A stretch of DNA of 64,000 bases from NCBI GenBank assembly GCA_965218585.1, contig CBDCLE010000024.1:1-64000 (forward strand), written 5' to 3'. Shown in pieces: positions 46,010-56,958 of this stretch; position 1 is the first letter of the stretch, and every line of letters starts with the position of its first letter. The notes under the pieces are model-generated. The model saw only the letters and a list, made by a program, of their open reading frames with translations, did not search any database and was not told the DNA's origin. A program made the translations under genes and the position numbers. The DNA is from Terriglobia bacterium. Lineage in GTDB: Bacteria; Acidobacteriota; Terriglobia; 20CM-2-55-15.

Positions 46010-46132
46010 AAGCCCCGAACACGATTTCTTTCGGGAATCAGCCCCACAAATAGTCTAATCTTCGTCGGCTCAGCACCCTCGGAGGTCTTGGAAGGCTCGC
46101 ATGGCCAGTCCTGAAGTCGTCCACCCTTTGCA

Positions 46133-47380
46133 GGCAGCGTTCGTAGTCGCCGAGCGGATGGCGCCGAGCGGCGTCATGCCTCGGTCGACCATCGCGGCAA
46201 ACTCTTTCGCATTGTCGCCGTGAGGATAGACGCCCGCGTCCGTTCCAAACGCTATGTTGACGCCGGCTTCGATGGCACGCCGCACGCTTGCCGCTGCCAA
46301 CGGGATCACCTGCTCGCCCTTGGCACGAATCGGCGGCGGCAGCATAGCTAGCAGCCTGTCGGACTAACACCAAATCAATAATCTAAGTCATTCATATGAC
46401 CGTGTTTACAGTTTCGAGCTGAAAAGGGCCGTCGTTGAAAACAAAGGACTTACGCCGAAAGTCCGACAGGCTGCTAGGTCGATGGCATCGTTGAGGTATG
46501 TGGTCGGCACAAGGTAGGTGCCGTGTTCTTTCATCGCTGCGACGGCCTCGTCGGTGAGCATTGACCCATGGTCGATGGAGGCCACACCGGCCCTCACGGC
46601 GGCGAGGATGCCTTCGGTTCCGTGGGCGTGTGCCGCCACCTTAAGGCCATGCCGGCGCGCTTCCTCGACGATGGCCTGCAGTTCTTCGAAGGAATATTGC
46701 TGTGCGCCCACCGCCTCTTCGAACGACAACACGCCGGCCGTGGCTAGGACCTTGATTACCTTGGCGCCATGCTTGATCTGATAGCGTACAGCCCGGACCA
46801 CTTCGTCGACGCCGTCGGCCACTCCTTGTTCTGGCGTCGACTCCAGTAGACCGGGGATAAAGCCGCCAGCGTCACCGTGGCCGCCGGTGATAGAAAGCGC
46901 GTGGCCGGCGGGCACGATGCGAGGCGCTTCGATGCGTCCAGCATCGCTCGCCTGCGCGAGCGCCACGTCGACAAACTCGACCGACCCAACGTCGCGCACG
47001 GTCGTGAAGCCGGCGATTAGCGTCTTTCGCGCATTGACGACGCCCCGGATGGTCCAGTTCGGCGTGGTCTCAGTGACAGTGCGAAGCTGTATGTTCGGCG
47101 TGAGGTCCAGCATCAGGTGGGTGTGCATGTCAATCAGGCCGGGCAGCAGCGTCATATCGCCCAAGTCGATCGTCTCGGCCCCGGCAGGCGCCTGGACCGG
47201 GTTGATGCCTTGGATCCTCCCATTTTCGACTACGACGACGGCGGGGCTCACGAACTCGCCGCTGTCGACGTCGAGCATCCGATCGGCCCGGATCACCAGG
47301 GATTGGGCGAGGGTTGAGGTGGCGCAGGCCACCAGCATGGCGCCTGCGAGGACGATTGAGCGGACGGCGGTTTTAGACAT
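46133..47380 (-). pseudogene. Amidohydrolase family protein (Xaa-Pro dipeptidase-like), MITE-interrupted and 3'-truncated
   Basis: LLPGLIDMHTH, AGFTTVRD, VAAHAHG, SIDHG, then after the insertion AFGTDAGVYPHG...AIRSATTNAA. The usual closing strand (G..AD) is missing. Confidence 0.88.
46352..46473. mobile_element. 122-bp MITE
   Basis: Perfect 14-bp IRs CAGCCTGTCGGACT / AGTCCGACAGGCTG; CTAG duplicated at 46348-46351 and 46474-46477; AT-rich interior. Removing it restores DAIDLAMLPP. Confidence 0.92.
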
Positions 47381-47708
47381 AGTCTCTCTCTGGTTCAATG
47401 GTGAACAGCCGGTGTCATATGGTTGATCTGTTATTAAAGTATCGTAGCAACGATTCTAAACGATTCTAATGGATGTGCTGGATACGTAGAACGGGAAACG
47501 TGAAGGTGCTTTGCATAAACGTCTCAATAGTGTACAGCTGCTCGCGATGGTGCCAATACTTGTTGTATGAGGCGAGAGAATGTGCTGCAGGTGCGGCCGC
47601 CGCTTCCGTTGATCCTCTCCTATTGCTCTGCAAGAATTCTCGAGTCCTGATAAATCATCTTGTCGGACGTTGAGAATTAAAACCGCTACTTTCCGATAAG
47701 CCGACTAT

Positions 47709-49176
47709 TACTACTATGTTACAAACGGTCTATTTTATGTTAGCATCCGGTCATGAGCGCCAAATCGAAGGCGCCAGGCACTCAGGAAAAACGTTTTGCG
47801 GCCTATTTGGAACGCCTGGCGTCGGCCGCAGGACACGCCGATCGTCATGAACCGTTGAAGTCGTACTGCACCGGGTTGTTGCTGCCGATCAAACGTAAGA
47901 GTGTGGAGCCGATGGCTGCACGATTGGCTCCGGATAATGTACGCCGAATGCACCAGTCGCTACATCATCTGGTCGCGGATGCGCCCTGGGACGATGCGGC
48001 TCTGTTGGCAGAAGTTCGACAGTACGCGCTGGGGGCGATGGAAGCCAACGGTCCGATTGAAGCCTGGATTGTCGACGACACCGGATTCGTGAAAAAGGGG
48101 ACCCACTCGGTGGGTGTGGCCCGGCAATACTGTGGACAGGTCGGCAAACCTGAGAACTGCCGGGTGGCGGTGAGCCTGTCGGTGGCGACAGCGAAATCCA
48201 GCTTGCCGGTGGCATGGCGACTCTACCTCCCCGAGACCTGGGCGAAGGATCCGGAACGTCGAAGCAAAGCCGCTATTCCCGAAGACGTTCGATTTCAAAC
48301 TAAACCTCAAATTGCTTTGGAACAAATCCGGCAGGCCGTCGATGACGGCATTGCTCCGGCACCGGTTCTGGGCGATACGGCCTACGGCAACAACTACAAG
48401 TTCCGGCACGGCATCACCGAACTCGGACTTAGCTACGTCCTAGGGGTGCAAGGCACCACGACCGTGTGGAAACCGGGCCAGGGTCCCTTGCCGCCGAAAT
48501 CCTTGACCGGCCGCGGACGGACACCGACCCGCATGCAGCGCAACAAGAAACATCAACCGGTTTCGGTCAAGCAACTGGCCCTCTCGTTGTCTCCCCAGCG
48601 TTGGAAGAACGTCTCCTGGCGCGAAGGCACCTCCGAGACCCTGCGTTCCCGTTTCGCCGCAGTTCGCATTCGTCCCGCTCATCTGGATCACGAGCGCCAC
48701 TCGCCGCATCCGAAAGAGTGGTTGTTGGTCGAGTGGCCCAAGACCGCATCCGAACCGATCCGGTACTGGCTCTCCACTCTTGGGGCCCATACCTCGCTTT
48801 CCGATCTGGCCGGTCAGGCCAAACAGCGCTGGATCATCGAACGCGACTATCAGGAACTCAAGCAGGAACTCGGTCTGGGACACTACGAAGGTCGCGGCTG
48901 GCGTGGATTTCACCATCATGGCACCTTATGTATTGCCTCTTATGGGTTCCTGGTCGCCGAGCGGAGCCGTTTTTCCCCCTCTGCATTTGTCGAGCATGTT
49001 GGACTATCCGTCCCCAAACTCCCCAAACACTTCAAACCCCGCGGAACCCCGGATCCGGCCCGAACGACATAACCCCTGCTCGATTGCCACGCTTCGCATT
49101 CGCATCGCCCGCTTCCTGATTCAGCAGCTTCCTCGTTGTCCGTTCTGTGGACCGCTTCGTTTATAACACAGTAGTA
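47709..49176 (+). mobile_element. IS701-family insertion sequence, intact, 1468 bp
   Basis: Same IRs and near-identical sequence to 17757-20770 minus the IS1182 insert; flanks CTAT and GTAG do not match. Confidence 0.95.
47753..49072 (+). CDS. IS701-family DDE transposase
   Basis: RKSVEPMA, IVDDTGFVKKGTHSVGVARQYCG, LYLP..W, RWIIERDYQELKQELGLGHYEGRGWRGFHHH. Confidence 0.95.
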   Translation: MSAKSKAPGTQEKRFAAYLERLASAAGHADRHEPLKSYCTGLLLPIKRKSVEPMAARLAPDNVRRMHQSLHHLVADAPWDDAALLAEVRQYALGAMEANGPIEAWIVDDTGFVKKGTHSVGVARQYCGQVGKPENCRVAVSLSVATAKSSLPVAWRLYLPETWAKDPERRSKAAIPEDVRFQTKPQIALEQIRQAVDDGIAPAPVLGDTAYGNNYKFRHGITELGLSYVLGVQGTTTVWKPGQGPLPPKSLTGRGRTPTRMQRNKKHQPVSVKQLALSLSPQRWKNVSWREGTSETLRSRFAAVRIRPAHLDHERHSPHPKEWLLVEWPKTASEPIRYWLSTLGAHTSLSDLAGQAKQRWIIERDYQELKQELGLGHYEGRGWRGFHHHGTLCIASYGFLVAERSRFSPSAFVEHVGLSVPKLPKHFKPRGTPDPARTT

Positions 49177-49700
49177 GTAGATGGCTCACTGGAATCGTCA
49201 CGCTTCTCTTTTTCTTTTTGGTGCAGCCGGCGACCTTGTACCCGATAGCTGCAGAAGGACAGAACGGTGAACCATCAGCTATTGATTTCCAAGCAGCAGA
49301 CTTAGATGGAGGTTCGTTCGACGGCCTCGGCCTGAAGGGGAATATTGTCCTGCTGGATTTCTGGGCGGTGTGGTGCAGACCCTGCCTCGATGCCTTCCCC
49401 AAACTCTACGAACTTAAGTCAGATCTGGCGGACGAAGATTTCCAAATCGTGAGCATCGCGCCCTATTCCGGAACGGCTGGTGACGTAAGGCAATTCCTCC
49501 AAGAATACCCGACCAACTACATCGCAGTCGTTGGAGACGAAGATCTCATCTATCGCTACGGCGTTATTGGTTATCCGACGTATTTCCTCCTCGATCCCCT
49601 TGGTGACATCTACCAAAAGTATGTTGGGGATCTTCCGGGTCTGACGGACCGGATCAAATCGGATGTTGAAGGACTCAGGGAGAAGTTCGGAATGCGCTGA
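49177..49700 (+). CDS. TlpA-family thiol:disulfide oxidoreductase; native start removed by IS701
   Basis: LKGNIVLLDFWAVWCRPC, YGVIGYPTYFLLD. The frame opens at the IS edge as RWLTGIVTLLFFFLVQPA, a signal peptide lacking Met. Confidence 0.85.
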
Positions 49701-49746
49701 TCGCAGCGTGAAGTTACAGTTGAAACTGATTCGAAAGGAGAAAGGA

Positions 49747-50607
49747 ATGCAAAGAAAATTTCTCGCCATCGCTTCGTTGGCTGTGGTTCTGGGATGGGGC
49801 ATTGTGAAGTCAGCCCCCGCCCAGGAGATCTCACCCGAAGCTCAGCAGGTCGTGGATTACCTGCTGGAAGATTGGCAGAAGCAGTTTCGGTCAACAAGTA
49901 TCGCACTAGCGATGAACAATCTCGGGATGGAACCCGACGACTCGCTTCGATTGGAGGTCGGCGAGTACTTTCGCGCCAACGTCAATCGGGCCCGGAATCT
50001 CCAGTTTTGGGGTGCGAACAATTACATCCTGAGTAATGAAGAAAAGCGGGCTGCTAAGTACCTGATGGGAATTGAGAATACCGAAGGGCGGATGCCCGAG
50101 CTCGCAGAGCTATCCCAAGTGTTGGGAATCCCTGCCGAAAATCTTGCTTCGCGATTGCGATTCATGGCCGATGCCGGTTTCCTGAAGCAGGATCCTGTAC
50201 AGGAACTCGGATTCTCACTTGCAGAAGGATTTGAACGTTGGGGTGGCCCACTCCAACATAACTTCCACACGTTACATGTCGAAGGCGAACGGCCCTTCGA
50301 TGTTTGGTGAGCGGTCGACTTCCTGCTGTTGGTCAACAGCGATGATTACAAAGGCAAGCATTTCACCCTCGAAGATTCCTGTGCTCACGGCCACTTGCCA
50401 ATCAGTGTAGAAATAGACAGTGCCACAATCACCGGCATGAATCCGGACTCTGTCTGGGTTCAGCAGGGTGGAGGCTGAGCGGTCGACAACCTCTTCTGGT
50501 CAGAAGAGCACATGAACGAATGGTTAGACGAGCACCCGGAATACCGGGAGTTGAACCAGTCTCCGATAGGAGAGTTTCTGGAGAATCTGAAGTCCCGAAG
50601 TCGTTAG
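49747..50607 (+). CDS. Exported MerB (organomercurial lyase)-like protein with two in-frame TGA codons; probable di-selenoprotein, 286 aa (U188, U244)
   Basis: RBS AAGGAG, signal peptide, winged-helix segment, then FDVW-TGA-AVD...EDSCAHGHLPISVEI...PDSVWV..GGG-TGA-AVDNLFWSEEHMNEW, ending at TAG 50605-50607 just before a terminator. Confidence 0.85.
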
Positions 50608-50632: not shown

Positions 50633-50661
50633 AAAGGGCGGCCACCGAGGCCGCCTTTTTT
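50633..50661 (+). terminator. Rho-independent terminator after the MerB-like readthrough ORF
   Basis: AAAG-GGCGGCC-accga-GGCCGCC-TTTTTT. Confidence 0.85.
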
Positions 50662-53246: not shown

Positions 53247-54542
53247 TCACGACAAATCGATACCGTCTTCCATCAATTCTTCATCAGAGGCCTCCCGGGC
53301 CAGAGTGCCTGGAGGGTTCTGATACCAATCCGGATCTTCGTAACTCGTAATTCCGTCCCGAACCTTCAGCACAGTGAACATGCCGCCCATGTCGACGGGA
53401 TCATGTTTCCCAGGTGTGCTCTTCATCGAGATGCTGTTGTCAGGAACAGGCATACCCATTTCAGCCATGCCGGCCATACCGGTCTGCCCCATCGTCATGT
53501 ATCCAGGCAGGAGCGAGCGGATGCGGTTGTCCAGGCCGCCGGGATCGAGTCCGATGACGTTCGGCCCTTCATGCCCCATCTGGTTCATGATGTGGTGGGT
53601 GAAGTGGCAGTGCATGGCCCAGTCCCCGGGTGCGTCGGCGACGAACTCGATGTCTCGCGTCGATCCTACAGGCACGAGCACTGTCGTTTCCGGCCACTGA
53701 GCCGTATCCGCAATGCGGCCCCCGTCGGTTCCCGTGATGTTGAAGGAATAGCCGTGCAAATGGATCGGATGGTTGTCCATAGCGCTCAGGTTCCCGAATC
53801 GGATACGGACGCTTTGACCCGTACCCACAACGAGAGGATCAGTTGCCGGAAAGGCCTTGCTGTTCAAGGTCAGGACGTTAAAGTCCGTCATCTCGCGAGG
53901 GTCGGGCCGACGGGCACCAATGGGGACGAACCACTCGCTCAGCATGATGGCGAAGTCGCGGTCTACGACGTATTGCGGTTCCTGTTCGTGGATAACGAGC
54001 ATGCCCATCAGTCCCATGCCCATCTGCGTCATCTCGTCGACGTGAGGGTGGTACATGAAGGTGCCGGGATTCAACATCGTGAATTCATACCTGAACGTCT
54101 CTCCTGGGCGGATATACGGCTGGTTCAGACCGCCTACGCCGTCCATGCCGTTAGGAAGAATAAGCCCGTGCCAGTGGACGGTCGTGGGTTCCGGCAGGCG
54201 GTTCGTAACGTAGATACGAACCCGGTCACCCTCTACAGCTTCGATCGTCGGTCCGGGAGTTCGGCCGTTGTAGCCCCAACACGGACCCGTGAGTCCGGGA
54301 GCGAATTCATGTTCCACTGGCTCGGCCATGAGGTGGAAGACCTTCACACCATTTTCTACGGTCCGGAAAGGAAGCGAGGTGCCGTTGGGCGTAACCACCG
54401 ATCGATAAGGGTTTCCCGTGCCCTCGGGTGAAGCTGTCGCTCCCGTCGTTTGCGATTGTGCTTCGGCAATGCTGGATGGGCCGATCAGAAGTGCGCCTCC
54501 TGCCAAGACCGAACCTGTCATGAATTTTCTTCGCGAAACCAT
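53247..54542 (-). CDS. Tat-exported multicopper oxidase
   Basis: SRRKF Tat motif, TVHWHG, MYHPH, HPIHLHG, MHCHFTHH; Met-rich tail. Confidence 0.93.
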   Translation of the reverse strand: MVSRRKFMTGSVLAGGALLIGPSSIAEAQSQTTGATASPEGTGNPYRSVVTPNGTSLPFRTVENGVKVFHLMAEPVEHEFAPGLTGPCWGYNGRTPGPTIEAVEGDRVRIYVTNRLPEPTTVHWHGLILPNGMDGVGGLNQPYIRPGETFRYEFTMLNPGTFMYHPHVDEMTQMGMGLMGMLVIHEQEPQYVVDRDFAIMLSEWFVPIGARRPDPREMTDFNVLTLNSKAFPATDPLVVGTGQSVRIRFGNLSAMDNHPIHLHGYSFNITGTDGGRIADTAQWPETTVLVPVGSTRDIEFVADAPGDWAMHCHFTHHIMNQMGHEGPNVIGLDPGGLDNRIRSLLPGYMTMGQTGMAGMAEMGMPVPDNSISMKSTPGKHDPVDMGGMFTVLKVRDGITSYEDPDWYQNPPGTLAREASDEELMEDGIDLS

Positions 54543-54554
54543 CTCAAGTTCTCC

Positions 54555-55949
54555 TTATTCCCTGGCGTCAGACATGCTGAAGACATCACGCATCGTCACC
54601 AACCGGCCTGCCAGAATCTGATCCAATGTCGAGCGCGCTCGCCAATAGCTCCGCAGCGCTGTCACATACTCCTGGCCGGTGCGGATTTGTTCCCTGCGGG
54701 CCAGGAGCAACTGAAACACTCCCGTCTGCATTGCGTTAAACTGCCTCTGGGTTTCGCCCACAATCTGTTCCCAGATCGGGAGCAGAACATCCCGGTAGTG
54801 CTCGGCTCGTCGAGTGGCGATCAACAACTCGCTTCGCGCCCGGCGGACCCCCGCCCGGATACGGACAGCACGGGCCCGATACTGCTGCTCCAATTGCCGC
54901 ATTTCAGCACGAGCTGCTTCGATGCGCCCCTGCCCCCGATCAAAAAGCGGCACCTCGAGGGAGATGATCGGGCCGGTCTGCCGAACACTTTCTTCTCTCC
55001 CAACCTGAGCCCCGGCCCGCAGCGCAGGCAGAAGGCCTTCTGCGCGTGCGAGGTTGGCCAGACGCGCCGACGCCGTGTAACGGTATTCGAGACCGAGAAG
55101 GTCCAGGCTTTCCTCAATGGCGCGAGCCTCCAGAACGTCAATGCCAGGCAGATCTCCTTCGGCTTCCGGTCCCCCTAGCCGTCCCGCTGACTGCCAGTCC
55201 GTTTCGGTTCCCGACAGTCCCATCCATGCATTGAGTTCTTCACGACGGCCGAGTGCGGCCGCCTCCGCCAGAGCCGTCTCACTCCGAGCCTGCTCGTAGA
55301 AGGCACGTTCGTTGGCCAGTTCCAGAGCTGTGATATTTCCCGCGTCATAGAGGCGTTGGGCTGCCTCGTATGATGCCGCGGCGACTTCCAGAACGGTCTG
55401 GTCCAGTTCCAGCAACTGTTCAGCCCCCTGGTAGTCGTAAAAGGCGTTGCGTACCTCGTAGGCGAACTCGAGTGCGGCCCCTCCGGTTTCGATACGAACC
55501 GCATCCAGCCCAGCTGCGGCGACGCCCCGGCGCAGTGGCAGGAACAGTAGGTCTGTCAGGTTGGCCGTAGCCGCGAAGCCGAAGTCCGAACGGCGGTTAT
55601 CGGCAAACGAACCGATATCGCCGTCGAACTCGATGTTGGGCGGCAAGCTTGCATCAATGAGTTGGGCTCGGGCGATTCCCAGCTCTTCAAAAAGTGCCTG
55701 CAGGTCGGCGTTCTTCAGGAGAGCGATATCGACAGCCTCGTCAGGTCCAATGGGTTGGGCAAGCAGCTCAGCTACTCTTTGGTCGAGGGCAGGATCGCCT
55801 GAGAGCTGCCGCCACTCGGCATCAAGCCCCGCCCGTTGTTCGAGTAGAACTTGCACGGATTCAAACCCAGCGTTTCGCGGAGCGCAGGAGGTGAGGCTCC
55901 CGATTAAAAGAAACAGGCATGCGAATGGTTTTGGTCTTAGCATCCTCAT
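54555..55949 (-). CDS. TolC-family outer-membrane lipoprotein associated with the copper oxidase
   Basis: Lipobox LTSC, AVDIALLKNADLQA, LEVPLFDRGQG, FNAMQTGVFQLL. Confidence 0.88.
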   Translation of the reverse strand: MRMLRPKPFACLFLLIGSLTSCAPRNAGFESVQVLLEQRAGLDAEWRQLSGDPALDQRVAELLAQPIGPDEAVDIALLKNADLQALFEELGIARAQLIDASLPPNIEFDGDIGSFADNRRSDFGFAATANLTDLLFLPLRRGVAAAGLDAVRIETGGAALEFAYEVRNAFYDYQGAEQLLELDQTVLEVAAASYEAAQRLYDAGNITALELANERAFYEQARSETALAEAAALGRREELNAWMGLSGTETDWQSAGRLGGPEAEGDLPGIDVLEARAIEESLDLLGLEYRYTASARLANLARAEGLLPALRAGAQVGREESVRQTGPIISLEVPLFDRGQGRIEAARAEMRQLEQQYRARAVRIRAGVRRARSELLIATRRAEHYRDVLLPIWEQIVGETQRQFNAMQTGVFQLLLARREQIRTGQEYVTALRSYWRARSTLDQILAGRLVTMRDVFSMSDARE

Positions 55950-55952
55950 CCC

Positions 55953-56477
55953 TCACGGCTCGGTGGGACCGGAGGCGTCTTCCCCCTCCGAGGCCACCAG
56001 ATCGATGCTGAAGATCTGAATTCGTTCTTCCGGAAGTCGCTCGATTCTGAAGACGATTTCGTTTCCTACTTCGAGAGATTCTCTCCTGACTTCTGCAGCA
56101 ACGGGGAATGTCATCGTCATCGCCATCATGAAGCCGGGAATCATCCCGTGTTGGATCTGTAATTGGTCTGCTGCTATGGCCCGAATCACTCCCTGTCCCA
56201 CGAAGGGCGCATCACGCGTACCGTCAGGTGTGCGATTGTCGCTTTGTCCGATTTCACGACCTTCCTCTCCAGTCGTAAGAGTAAGTTCCCCAGACGGATA
56301 CAGAGGCGCATTGGGCCGGAGGATGGCCGCAGGTTCGGCCTCCACTCGCCCGGGGGGAGCATCGATTCGCGCAGGGTGGTCTGAGGCCAGCCCGAGGGTT
56401 GTGGGTACACAGCCGGAGCCGACGAGAGCGAGGATCAGTGTGCCCCCCAACAGTAGCTTGTTTGGGCTGTTCTCCAT
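55953..56477 (-). CDS. CusF-like copper-binding lipoprotein
   Basis: Lipobox GSGC; IQHGMIPGFMMAMTMTF CusF-type His/Met site. Confidence 0.8.
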   Translation of the reverse strand: MENSPNKLLLGGTLILALVGSGCVPTTLGLASDHPARIDAPPGRVEAEPAAILRPNAPLYPSGELTLTTGEEGREIGQSDNRTPDGTRDAPFVGQGVIRAIAADQLQIQHGMIPGFMMAMTMTFPVAAEVRRESLEVGNEIVFRIERLPEERIQIFSIDLVASEGEDASGPTEP

Positions 56478-56511
56478 CTAAATCTCCTCTTCTGAGATCT
56501 TTCAGCGGACG

Positions 56512-56958
56512 CTAATTGCCGCTGATCACTACCGTCGGTGCCACGTCGCCCACCCATTCCGCAGTGCTTCCGTCCGCGTGAGTTTGAACGACGCTCCACA
56601 CCAGAGTGGTTGCTTCCCCAGGGTTTTCGGCAGTGAAGCTGAATTGTTCCGCTTGGCCCTGGGGAATCTCTCCGCCGCTCCACACTGCGCTTACAACGTA
56701 GCCGTCGGCATCCGTTGTCGGCTCGATCGTCCAGCCGGTTTTAGATTCGAAGTCGGAGACCGTCACGCCCATCGGAAACTCGGCTTCAATCCGGACTGTG
56801 GCACTGTCCCGTTCGGTAGGAACGCGCATCGTGTAGGTTTCACTCGCGCCGGTGGAGGATTCCGTAGGCGAAATCGTCACGTGAGCAAACCCGCTTCCTA
56901 CGACGAAGAAAATCCCTAAAGCTGCGGCAAACACCAGATAAGGTTCTTGTGTTCTCAT
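56512..56958 (-). CDS. YcnI/DUF1775 family copper-binding protein
   Basis: Mature N-terminal His (AHVTISP), RVPTE, WSGG, VVQTHADG...EW. Confidence 0.85.
   Translation of the reverse strand: MRTQEPYLVFAAALGIFFVVGSGFAHVTISPTESSTGASETYTMRVPTERDSATVRIEAEFPMGVTVSDFESKTGWTIEPTTDADGYVVSAVWSGGEIPQGQAEQFSFTAENPGEATTLVWSVVQTHADGSTAEWVGDVAPTVVISGN

Follow-up and report, generated by a model that had tools for sequence, protein, structure and literature searches.

A MerB-fold gene with two in-frame UGA codons, each followed by a hairpin that is very probably a bacterial SECIS element

The bacterial SECIS model of Zhang and Gladyshev, as summarised in Fig. 2A of PMC13188914, has an apical loop of 3 to 9 nt on an upper stem of 4 to 16 bp, with a G in the first two loop positions, 16 to 37 nt between UGA and loop and a minimum free energy (MFE) of -7.5 kcal/mol or lower. 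In the account given in PMC8659212, the fdhF element of E. coli has an 11-nt spacer and a bulged U17 in its upper stem. Among proteins of the MerB type, for which the roles and signature of Cys96, Asp99, Cys117 and Cys159 are treated in PMC8261052 and PMC10114901, one selenoprotein has been presented, the organometallic lyase SaoL (NF040728), with a single selenocysteine (Sec) in a CU motif (as outlined in bioRxiv 10.1101/2022.07.06.499078). SaoL is the only MerB-like entry in the table of 119 selenoprotein families in PMC13188914, the MerB-like entry in PMC9312934 has the same accession, and the main text on BSepDB (PMC13326102) makes no mention of MerB. In a full-text literature search of openly readable sources, no MerB-like family with two Sec residues or with export was seen described, and the double-selenocysteine, probably exported MerB-like family described here is apparently uncatalogued.

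The gene in question was found in the window (the whole stretch of 64,000 nt that was analysed), where a single open reading frame runs through two UGA codons, as the earlier note had read it. The gene and its parts are as follows.

49735 to 49746, + strand: purine-rich, Shine-Dalgarno-like stretch ahead of the ATG, read from the sequence
49747 to 50607, + strand: gene for a MerB-fold protein of 286 aa with two in-frame UGA codons (U188 and U244) and a TAG end, seen as an ORF with weak MerB HMM matches across the UGAs and MerB as the top fold match
49747 to 49821, + strand: predicted cleavable signal peptide, approximately residues 1 to 25, with a basic n-region, a hydrophobic core and an A-P-A end
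50308 to 50310, + strand: UGA 1, putative Sec188, aligned to MerB Cys96, with Asp191 as the equivalent of Asp99
50476 to 50478, + strand: UGA 2, putative Sec244, aligned to MerB Cys159
50633 to 50661, + strand: inverted repeat, rich in GC and with a run of T behind it, that is likely the gene's terminator, read from the sequence and absent from the list of the terminator scan

The two UGA-linked elements lie 168 nt apart in this one gene. Judging from sequence and its comparison, we hold it very probable that both hairpins are SECIS elements, that Sec is inserted at both positions and that the gene encodes a MerB-fold protein, the substrate being left out of this estimate. An Rfam search gave no SECIS-like match and one chance match at the terminator. 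Contigs from two RNA-library runs contained only pieces of a related strain outside the UGA region. A contig of run X2, which may come from the source sample itself, is identical to 49147 to 50505.

The product is likely exported. A simple rule based on hydropathy picked out a hydrophobic N-terminal 11-mer in all 81 close proteins tested, and no hydrophobic N terminus in about half of 33 distant homologs; residues 1 to 20 have low pLDDT in an AlphaFold model that as a whole reaches 93.7. A distant sub-branch (P0102, P0114, P0115, P0130, P0134 and others), one member of which is labelled Chloroflexota, has no signal peptide. In several of its members two separate stretches align with the query, suggesting a duplication of the N-terminal domain.

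MerB is the top fold match of the model (Foldseek E value of 1.8e-8; Z of 11.9 and rmsd of 2.1 over 116 residues), and MerB2 was the match in the PDB by sequence (E value of 3e-4). The scores with MerB HMMs were below the curated cut-offs, at 28.4 against 193 and 21.1 against 200 bits for NCBIfam and 22.7 against 27 for Pfam. When Sec is counted as Cys, U188, D191, C212 and U244 align with Cys96, Asp99, Cys117 and Cys159 of MerB. In the column of Asp191, 56 of 63 rows have Asp and 5 have Glu, and a C-x-x-C motif at 212 to 215 was found in 38 of the 63 aligned rows.

In databases, 78 of 84 homologs end exactly before site 1, and 10 cluster look-ups gave no name beyond "hypothetical protein". 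A wider search with 117 representatives retrieved Cys/Cys, Cys/stop and stop/stop forms, with Cys in the site-1 column of distant homologs. A tree of 50 rows set 42 family rows apart from canonical MerB and from other Sec-bearing MerB-like branches (support of 100/99, with a midpoint root and long branches flagged). One Cys/Cys and one Cys/stop member nest within the UGA/UGA clade, a position that suggests reversions. NF040728 gave 37 weak matches among the 63 family rows (best E value of 6.6e-10, with a cut-off of 140 bits) and none at an E value of 0.1 or lower to the query protein; these weak SaoL matches were the only ones obtained with the NCBIfam selenoprotein models on the MerB-like region of the 63 rows. 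A separate, apparently cytoplasmic MerB-like branch (L060, positions 1483 and 1678, genome G198; 28% identity to the query protein over 97 residues) likewise has an in-frame UGA at each of the catalytic positions, and a GGUC-loop hairpin like that of the 49747-50607 gene comes after the second one. A third branch (L069:986 and L072:1563) combines Cys at the first site with UGA at the second, and here too a GGUC-loop hairpin lies 19 nt downstream. The recurrence of this hairpin at 19 nt in L060, L069 and L072 is explained by the F-[RWS]-S-E-E peptide, whose codons can form it.

The gene lies directly downstream from a gene for a thiol-disulfide oxidoreductase and an insertion sequence (IS).

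49177 to 49700, + strand: TlpA/ResA-like thiol-disulfide oxidoreductase gene (WCRPC), the conserved partner, with its 5' end apparently cut by the IS (HMM, locus survey)
47706 to 49180, + strand: multi-copy DDE insertion sequence at the start of tlpA, transposase at 47753 to 49072, outside the system (IS boundary, HMM)

A TlpA-like gene stands upstream on the same strand in 37 of the 43 loci with enough flanking sequence, and in L021/P0078 TlpA is fused to the MerB-like protein. At 34 loci inspected for up to two ORFs on each side, TlpA was the only widely shared neighbour. Pfam assignment of 47 hand-picked neighbour ORFs from these loci gave canonical MerB at 4 loci, two of which are close relatives of each other, and one locus each for MerR, ArsR and a heavy-metal-associated (HMA) domain. 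Here the neighbours are the IS, tlpA and a two-component pair, with no mer genes at the locus. The IS has many near-identical copies in the genome. No start codon is left ahead of the hydrophobic leader of tlpA; the IS appears to have removed it, so the operon may be impaired in this strain. Related strains (runs X5 and X6) have no IS at this point; their contigs enter other DNA at 49177 and have CTG instead of TTG at 49218. Elsewhere, pairs of ECF sigma and zinc-finger anti-sigma factors (L012 and L053 to L055) or of BlaI/BlaR-like regulators (L017, L022, L037 and L041) stand upstream of the tlpA-merB-like unit, each kind in lineages of its own.

Farther along the window, on the - strand, 53247 to 56958 holds what we take, from motifs, to be multicopper-oxidase-like, outer-membrane efflux (TolC-like), CusF-like and YcnI-like genes, a copper-handling cluster about 3 kb from the double-UGA gene. 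Also on the - strand, 46038 to 47398 holds what is presumably an amidohydrolase-like gene, apparently split into two ORFs.

Translated through both UGAs, the gene would yield an exported enzyme of the MerB fold whose site is Sec-Asp-Sec. In it, two selenolates would hold the organometal and Asp191 would protonate the carbon, while TlpA would keep the two selenols reduced or strip the bound metal, resetting the site. That its job is MerB-type cleavage of metal-carbon bonds outside the cytoplasm, with TlpA resetting the site, is the likeliest of the roles considered, close to an even call but on the doubtful side. A more specific proposal, in which the exported protein is an organometallic lyase whose MerB site is all selenium (Sec-Asp-Sec) and a periplasmic thioredoxin dedicated to it, not MerA, does the recycling, is tentative and on the whole unlikely. 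Against a lyase role speak the 28.4 bits, far under the curated MerB cut-off of 193, the rarity of an adjoining canonical MerB (only 4 of the 34 loci) and the lack of any MerA over the cut-off in this 95%-complete genome, which has four MerA-like matches.

With the same recoding, the protein might instead be a redox enzyme, running a diselenide cycle that TlpA reduces and acting on an exported oxidised metalloid or sulfur substrate. We regard this as possible, though we lean against it. A thioredoxin-fold reductase that is tightly linked, and in L021/P0078 even fused, would fit such a cycle, as would the C-x-x-C motif in 38 of 63 rows, the lack of a mer operon at most loci and the richness of the genome in redox selenoproteins. 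However, the MerB fold and its acid Asp191 have been retained, and metal-related neighbours recur (MerB at 4 loci; MerR, ArsR and HMA at one each). A role as a periplasmic trap or carrier that binds soft metals (Hg, Cu, Ag) without catalysis, the selenols serving as high-affinity ligands, seems unlikely. MerB variants are described in PMC8261052 and PMC10114901 as binding other metals via two cysteines, and the BlaI/BlaR-like, ECF sigma/anti-sigma and ArsR/MerR regulators near several loci would suit an inducible envelope response; yet the catalytic Asp is conserved, and a costly double selenoprotein would fit a catalyst better than a stoichiometric sink. The lyase and both of these alternatives share the recoding of the two UGAs, for which the hairpins downstream are part of the evidence.

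50311 to 50323, + strand: spacer 1, 13 nt, unpaired in the RNAalifold consensus, its first 9 nt encoding Ala-Val-Asp
50324 to 50341, + strand: putative SECIS hairpin 1, a 7-bp stem (50324-50330 with 50335-50341) and a GGUC loop (50331-50334), 20 nt past the UGA (folding, covariation, RNAalifold)
50479 to 50490, + strand: spacer 2, 12 nt, unpaired in the RNAalifold consensus
50491 to 50508, + strand: putative SECIS hairpin 2, a 7-bp stem (50491-50497 with 50502-50508) and a GGUC loop (50498-50501), 19 nt past the UGA (folding, covariation, RNAalifold)

The similarity of the two sites was first noted in two strings that are indeed present exactly, at 50308 to 50335 and 50476 to 50502, each ending in the hexamer UGGUCA. 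This hexamer consists of the GGUC loop and its closing U-A pair, and the stem sequences of the two sites differ. The 7-bp stems with the GGUC loop evaluate at -6.4 (site 1) and -7.4 kcal/mol (site 2), and 27-nt hairpin windows at -7.3 and -7.4 kcal/mol, against the model threshold of -7.5. The 48 nt from the UGA reach -8.7 (site 1, in another fold) and -9.3 kcal/mol (site 2), and the MFE structure of a 43-nt window at site 1 is also a different fold. Single-sequence stability in 35-nt windows was unremarkable (z-scores of 0.20 and -0.52), so the case for the hairpins rests on comparison.

Homologous loci were collected from the genomes of relatives, named genomes (19 loci), metagenomes (19 loci) and phylum searches; the titles of the named-genome loci include Acidobacteriota, Neomarinimicrobiota, Bacteroidota and Deferribacteres. 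From the loci of relatives, named genomes and metagenomes we built alignments of 36 rows, in which RNAalifold, unaided, returned an identical 7-bp/GGUC hairpin at both sites, with the first G of the loop invariant at both. At site 1, 96.5% of the cells in 33 distinct rows are paired, and two-sided changes (U-A to G-C or C-G) occur in three pairs and 15 cells, a result reached in none of 500 shuffles; control windows slid along the alignment gave 0 to 4 two-sided cells. One of these changes, U-A to G-C, ties a Leu-to-Val to an Asn-to-Thr replacement. At site 2, with 30 distinct rows and 99.0% of cells paired, two pairs and 14 cells changed on both sides (again 0 of 500 shuffles, and 0 to 7 cells in slid windows), the count of covarying pairs by itself being ordinary (123 of 500 shuffles). 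Its closing pair is U-A with Trp, C-G with Arg and A-U with Ser, and the Ser that comes next changes its wobble base to match. Since the homologs are related, the loci are not independent trials and these shuffle counts should not be read as probabilities.

Of 47 loci that span both sites, 45 distinct ones were left after collapsing, row L057 being misaligned through a frameshift. In these, codons within stem and loop are frozen: V196 (GTC, 43 of 43), N197 (29 of 29) and S198 (AGC, 37 of 37) at site 1, and L249 (CTC, 42 of 42), F250 (TTC, 45 of 45) and E253 (44 of 45) at site 2. Most other conserved residues have codon uniformities of 0.30 to 0.70, the exceptions being F184 (0.95), I228 (0.88) and C215 (0.86). 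Spacer 1 varies synonymously among homologs. The spacer codons GCG GTC GAC (50311-50319 and 50479-50487) reach uniformities of 0.71 to 0.83, against 0.33 to 0.59 for Ala, Val and Asp elsewhere, and no supported pairing accounts for this. Gene conversion between the spacers was considered and found no support: the Ala codons of the two sites agree more often than in permutations (23 of 32, p of 0.011), Val gave a p of 0.07 and Asp of 0.21, and the control pair D210/D247 gave 0.014.

The hairpin also follows the UGA. Site 1 holds TGA in 46 of 48 loci, the other two being a true Cys codon (L010) and a misaligned row, and site 2 holds TGA in 50 of 51 loci, the remaining row being misaligned. In a census of all loci minus listed duplicates, with the misaligned rows L057 and L056 set aside and a hairpin defined as 6 bp or more capped by a G-led loop, such a hairpin followed 45 of 46 site-1 TGAs (the exception, L016, has 5 bp) and 49 of 50 site-2 TGAs (all but L068). 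It was absent after the site-1 Cys codon of L010, the sole in-family DNA control, and after the catalytic Cys codons of all eight loci of MerB or MerB-like relatives; it followed 6 of 43 Cys212 codons. Phylum-wide searches of 401, 167 and 201 genomes (the third repeating the phylum of the first) produced no further in-family Cys codon. The homologous genes of L010, L056, L057, L058 and L028 appear frameshifted, with split matches, by decay or long-read assembly error.

The presence of a SECIS-type element after each UGA, with both UGAs probably Sec codons, thus agrees with the original proposal, on the grounds of covariation, alignment with Cys and the sel machinery (see below). The structure proposed there was a different one, in which GAC pairs with GUC straight after the UGA to close a small hairpin, the motif being a SECIS consensus of the host lineage, and this we consider most improbable. 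At site 1, 98.5% of cells formally retain the GAC/GUC pairs, and at site 2 the share is 92.5%; the spacer codons are somewhat more uniform than other Ala, Val and Asp codons (GCG 29 of 41, GTC 28 of 35, GAC 33 of 43). However, the three pairs amount to only -0.4 and -0.9 kcal/mol, and to +1.4 and +1.9 kcal/mol when a C-G pair is added; their variation is only the C/U wobble imposed by Asp and Phe/Asn codons, and one pair is broken in 6 of 30 distinct rows at site 2. Two-sided changes were seen in no cell at site 1 and one at site 2, so that covariation, the check suggested at the outset, favours the 7-bp stem over the GAC/GUC pairing. The two are incompatible, because the covarying stem needs GGUC as its loop. 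A pseudoknot joining them was also considered, and by reasoning is sterically implausible, as no linker separates the loop strand from the 3' strand of the stem.

The hexamer TGGTCA is read as TTG GTC A at site 1 and as TGG TCA at site 2, from which it had been argued that protein similarity does not explain the shared motif. Only part of this holds. At either site the initial 12 nt are read as U-A-V-D in one shared frame, identical codons having a probability of 4.7% under the codon usage of the genome, and among 50,000 random synonymous recodings TGGTCA arose in place in 23% (site 1) and 8.5% (site 2). The 7-bp hairpin, in contrast, formed in only 0.9% and 2.2% of them. The likeness of the two elements would have two sources, the U-A-V-D that the protein has at each site and the GGUC at which both loops have settled, a sequence that accommodates Leu-Val-Asn when read in one frame and Trp-Ser when read in the other.

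The idea of a lineage-specific consensus could be checked against other selenoprotein genes of the same genome, which encodes tRNA-Sec(UCA), SelA, SelB and a SelD whose gene has its own UGA. A search for AhpC/TSA proteins gave 11 matches with one TGA, ten of them at the active-site position; the other (C4:172023), which scored below the cut-off and has its TGA close to its end, was dropped. Adding SelD, an OsmC-like and a DsbA-like protein to these ten gives 13 comparison sites.

C25:160626, C26:118931, C2:341302, C17:5712, C26:346579, C13:2630, C12:184260, C2:102140, C17:141701, C3:63488, C26:310308, C5:11264 and C4:113897, in genome G000: 13 selenoprotein UGA sites, a large selenoproteome

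The motif TGA-N6-GAC-N8-13-GGTC follows none of the 13, including SelD, the comparison named beforehand as one that could disprove a lineage consensus. As a selenoprotein finder it does not work either, since TGA-N6-GAC-N8-11-GGTC has 32 matches in the genome and falls on a selenoprotein UGA only at the two query sites. The 12-mer TGAGCGGTCGAC occurs three times in the 4.55-Mb genome, and TGAGCGGTCGAC-N8-11-TGGTCA at the two query sites only. Even within the family, the GAC/GGTC motif follows only 35 of 46 site-1 and 33 of 50 site-2 UGAs. To judge from the sequences compared, the GGUC/GUUC loop is a feature that tracks the gene family across phyla, and other MerB-like branches, and not the host lineage.

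A 7-bp hairpin with a G-led loop 16 to 26 nt downstream was found at 10 of the 13 sites (8 of the 11 found without a screen on sequence context), compared to a background of 1.4% of 141,068 TGA triplets, the limits of this filter having been chosen after the sites were seen. The other three (C25:160626, C12:184260 and C17:141701) have no hairpin of at least 6 bp. Loops at these sites vary (GGA, GGT, GTG, AGGT, AGTTG, CGGGC). The ordinary hairpins at 10 of 13 sites, together with the absence of the motif, indicate that the query elements are very probably canonical SECIS.

Searches for further selenoproteins were noisy (144 matches in a strict GG-tetraloop scan; 178 and 56 candidates in coding-potential scans), and none of the four PF00384 matches that represent molybdopterin enzymes in the genome has an internal stop. 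Scanning of 14 extra candidates yielded two that were selenoprotein-like (OsmC and DsbA), three that looked like ordinary genes interrupted by an in-frame TGA and nine without a family. A hairpin alone proved a false positive in an integrase, with a stem of 10 bp. The in-frame TGAs seen in a tyrosine recombinase (L090, C11:138398, followed by a 10-bp hairpin with a GGA loop), a CDF transporter (L094, C1:93081) and a carboxypeptidase-regulatory-like-domain protein (L103, C5:160469) are probably nonsense changes or assembly errors. selB is present in 52 of 61 relatives and the double-UGA MerB-like gene is patchy (5 of 61); with selB so common, its co-occurrence with the gene adds little.

That the UGAs are true stops or Trp codons, in a decayed or split gene or under an altered genetic code, is scarcely credible: although two database entries (P0008 and P0069) show W at both sites and other in-frame TGAs in ordinary genes here (integrase, CDF transporter) resemble nonsense changes, the W is most simply a TGA translated under another table, homologs have Cys at both columns, TGA is kept at both catalytic positions in several phyla with an open frame and conserved sequence beyond, adjacent genes use TGA as their terminal codon, and the genome has tRNA-Sec(UCA) beside a single tRNA-Trp with anticodon CCA.

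We therefore return to recoding at both sites, in which each hairpin would act as an ordinary bacterial SECIS and SelB would deliver selenocysteine at both catalytic positions. By analogy with E. coli, the spacer of 12 to 13 nt would lie in the ribosome when the UGA is in the A site, and SelB-GTP-Sec-tRNA would bind each loop as its UGA reaches the A site, twice per protein. Failed insertion would leave truncations of 187 or 243 residues.

These results describe a protein family that occurs in several phyla and is recorded almost only as a fragment without the whole active site (78 of 84 entries). Both selenoproteome catalogues and merB-based estimates of microbial mercury demethylation miss it, the merB surveys because the gene is called as 187-aa fragments. 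If the all-selenium lyase were true, selenium-using environmental bacteria of several phyla would have a way, outside the cytoplasm, to demethylate methylmercury or to split other bonds between metal and carbon. The gene is also an unusually clean natural case of an ordinary RNA element, since its two independent stems have compensatory changes that pull amino-acid changes along and freeze synonymous codons, and two such covarying stems provide a ready test pair for the specificity of SelB outside E. coli. As Cys/Cys, Cys/Sec and Sec/Sec forms all exist in nature, what selenium does to MerB chemistry can be tested directly.

When compared to the described systems, the RNA element is a SECIS of known kind. 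Its 4-nt GGUC loop, 7-bp stem and UGA-to-loop distances of 20 and 19 nt fall within the bacterial model; the host has SelA, SelB, tRNA-Sec and SelD; the UGAs align with Cys in homologous proteins, and where a Cys codon takes the place of the UGA, in L010 and at the catalytic positions of eight MerB-relative loci, no hairpin follows. Nothing essential differs, the isolated hairpins being 0.1 to 0.2 kcal/mol short of the energy threshold. With the fdhF element as described in PMC8659212 it shares a short stem-loop past a spacer of ribosome length and a G and a U in the apical loop, although the spacers here are 13 and 12 nt, the stems are unbulged and the 39-nt consensus has no conserved lower stem. 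On the protein side, the query resembles SaoL in its MerB fold, in Sec at the Cys159 equivalent and in database entries that stop at the UGA. SaoL, as characterised in its source, has Cys at the Cys96 position, is cytosolic, has about 213 aa and belongs to a nine-gene SAO locus of anaerobes, whereas the query has two Sec residues in GGG-U and W-U motifs, a predicted signal peptide, a TlpA partner and an extra N-terminal helical region of about 65 aa. With MerB itself (PF03243; PDB 3F2G and 5C17) it has in common the fold, the equivalents of the four catalytic residues and an N-terminal winged-helix-like domain, and it differs in an identity of about 20%, in scores below the cut-offs, in Sec for both catalytic Cys, in its predicted export and in a locus without a mer operon.
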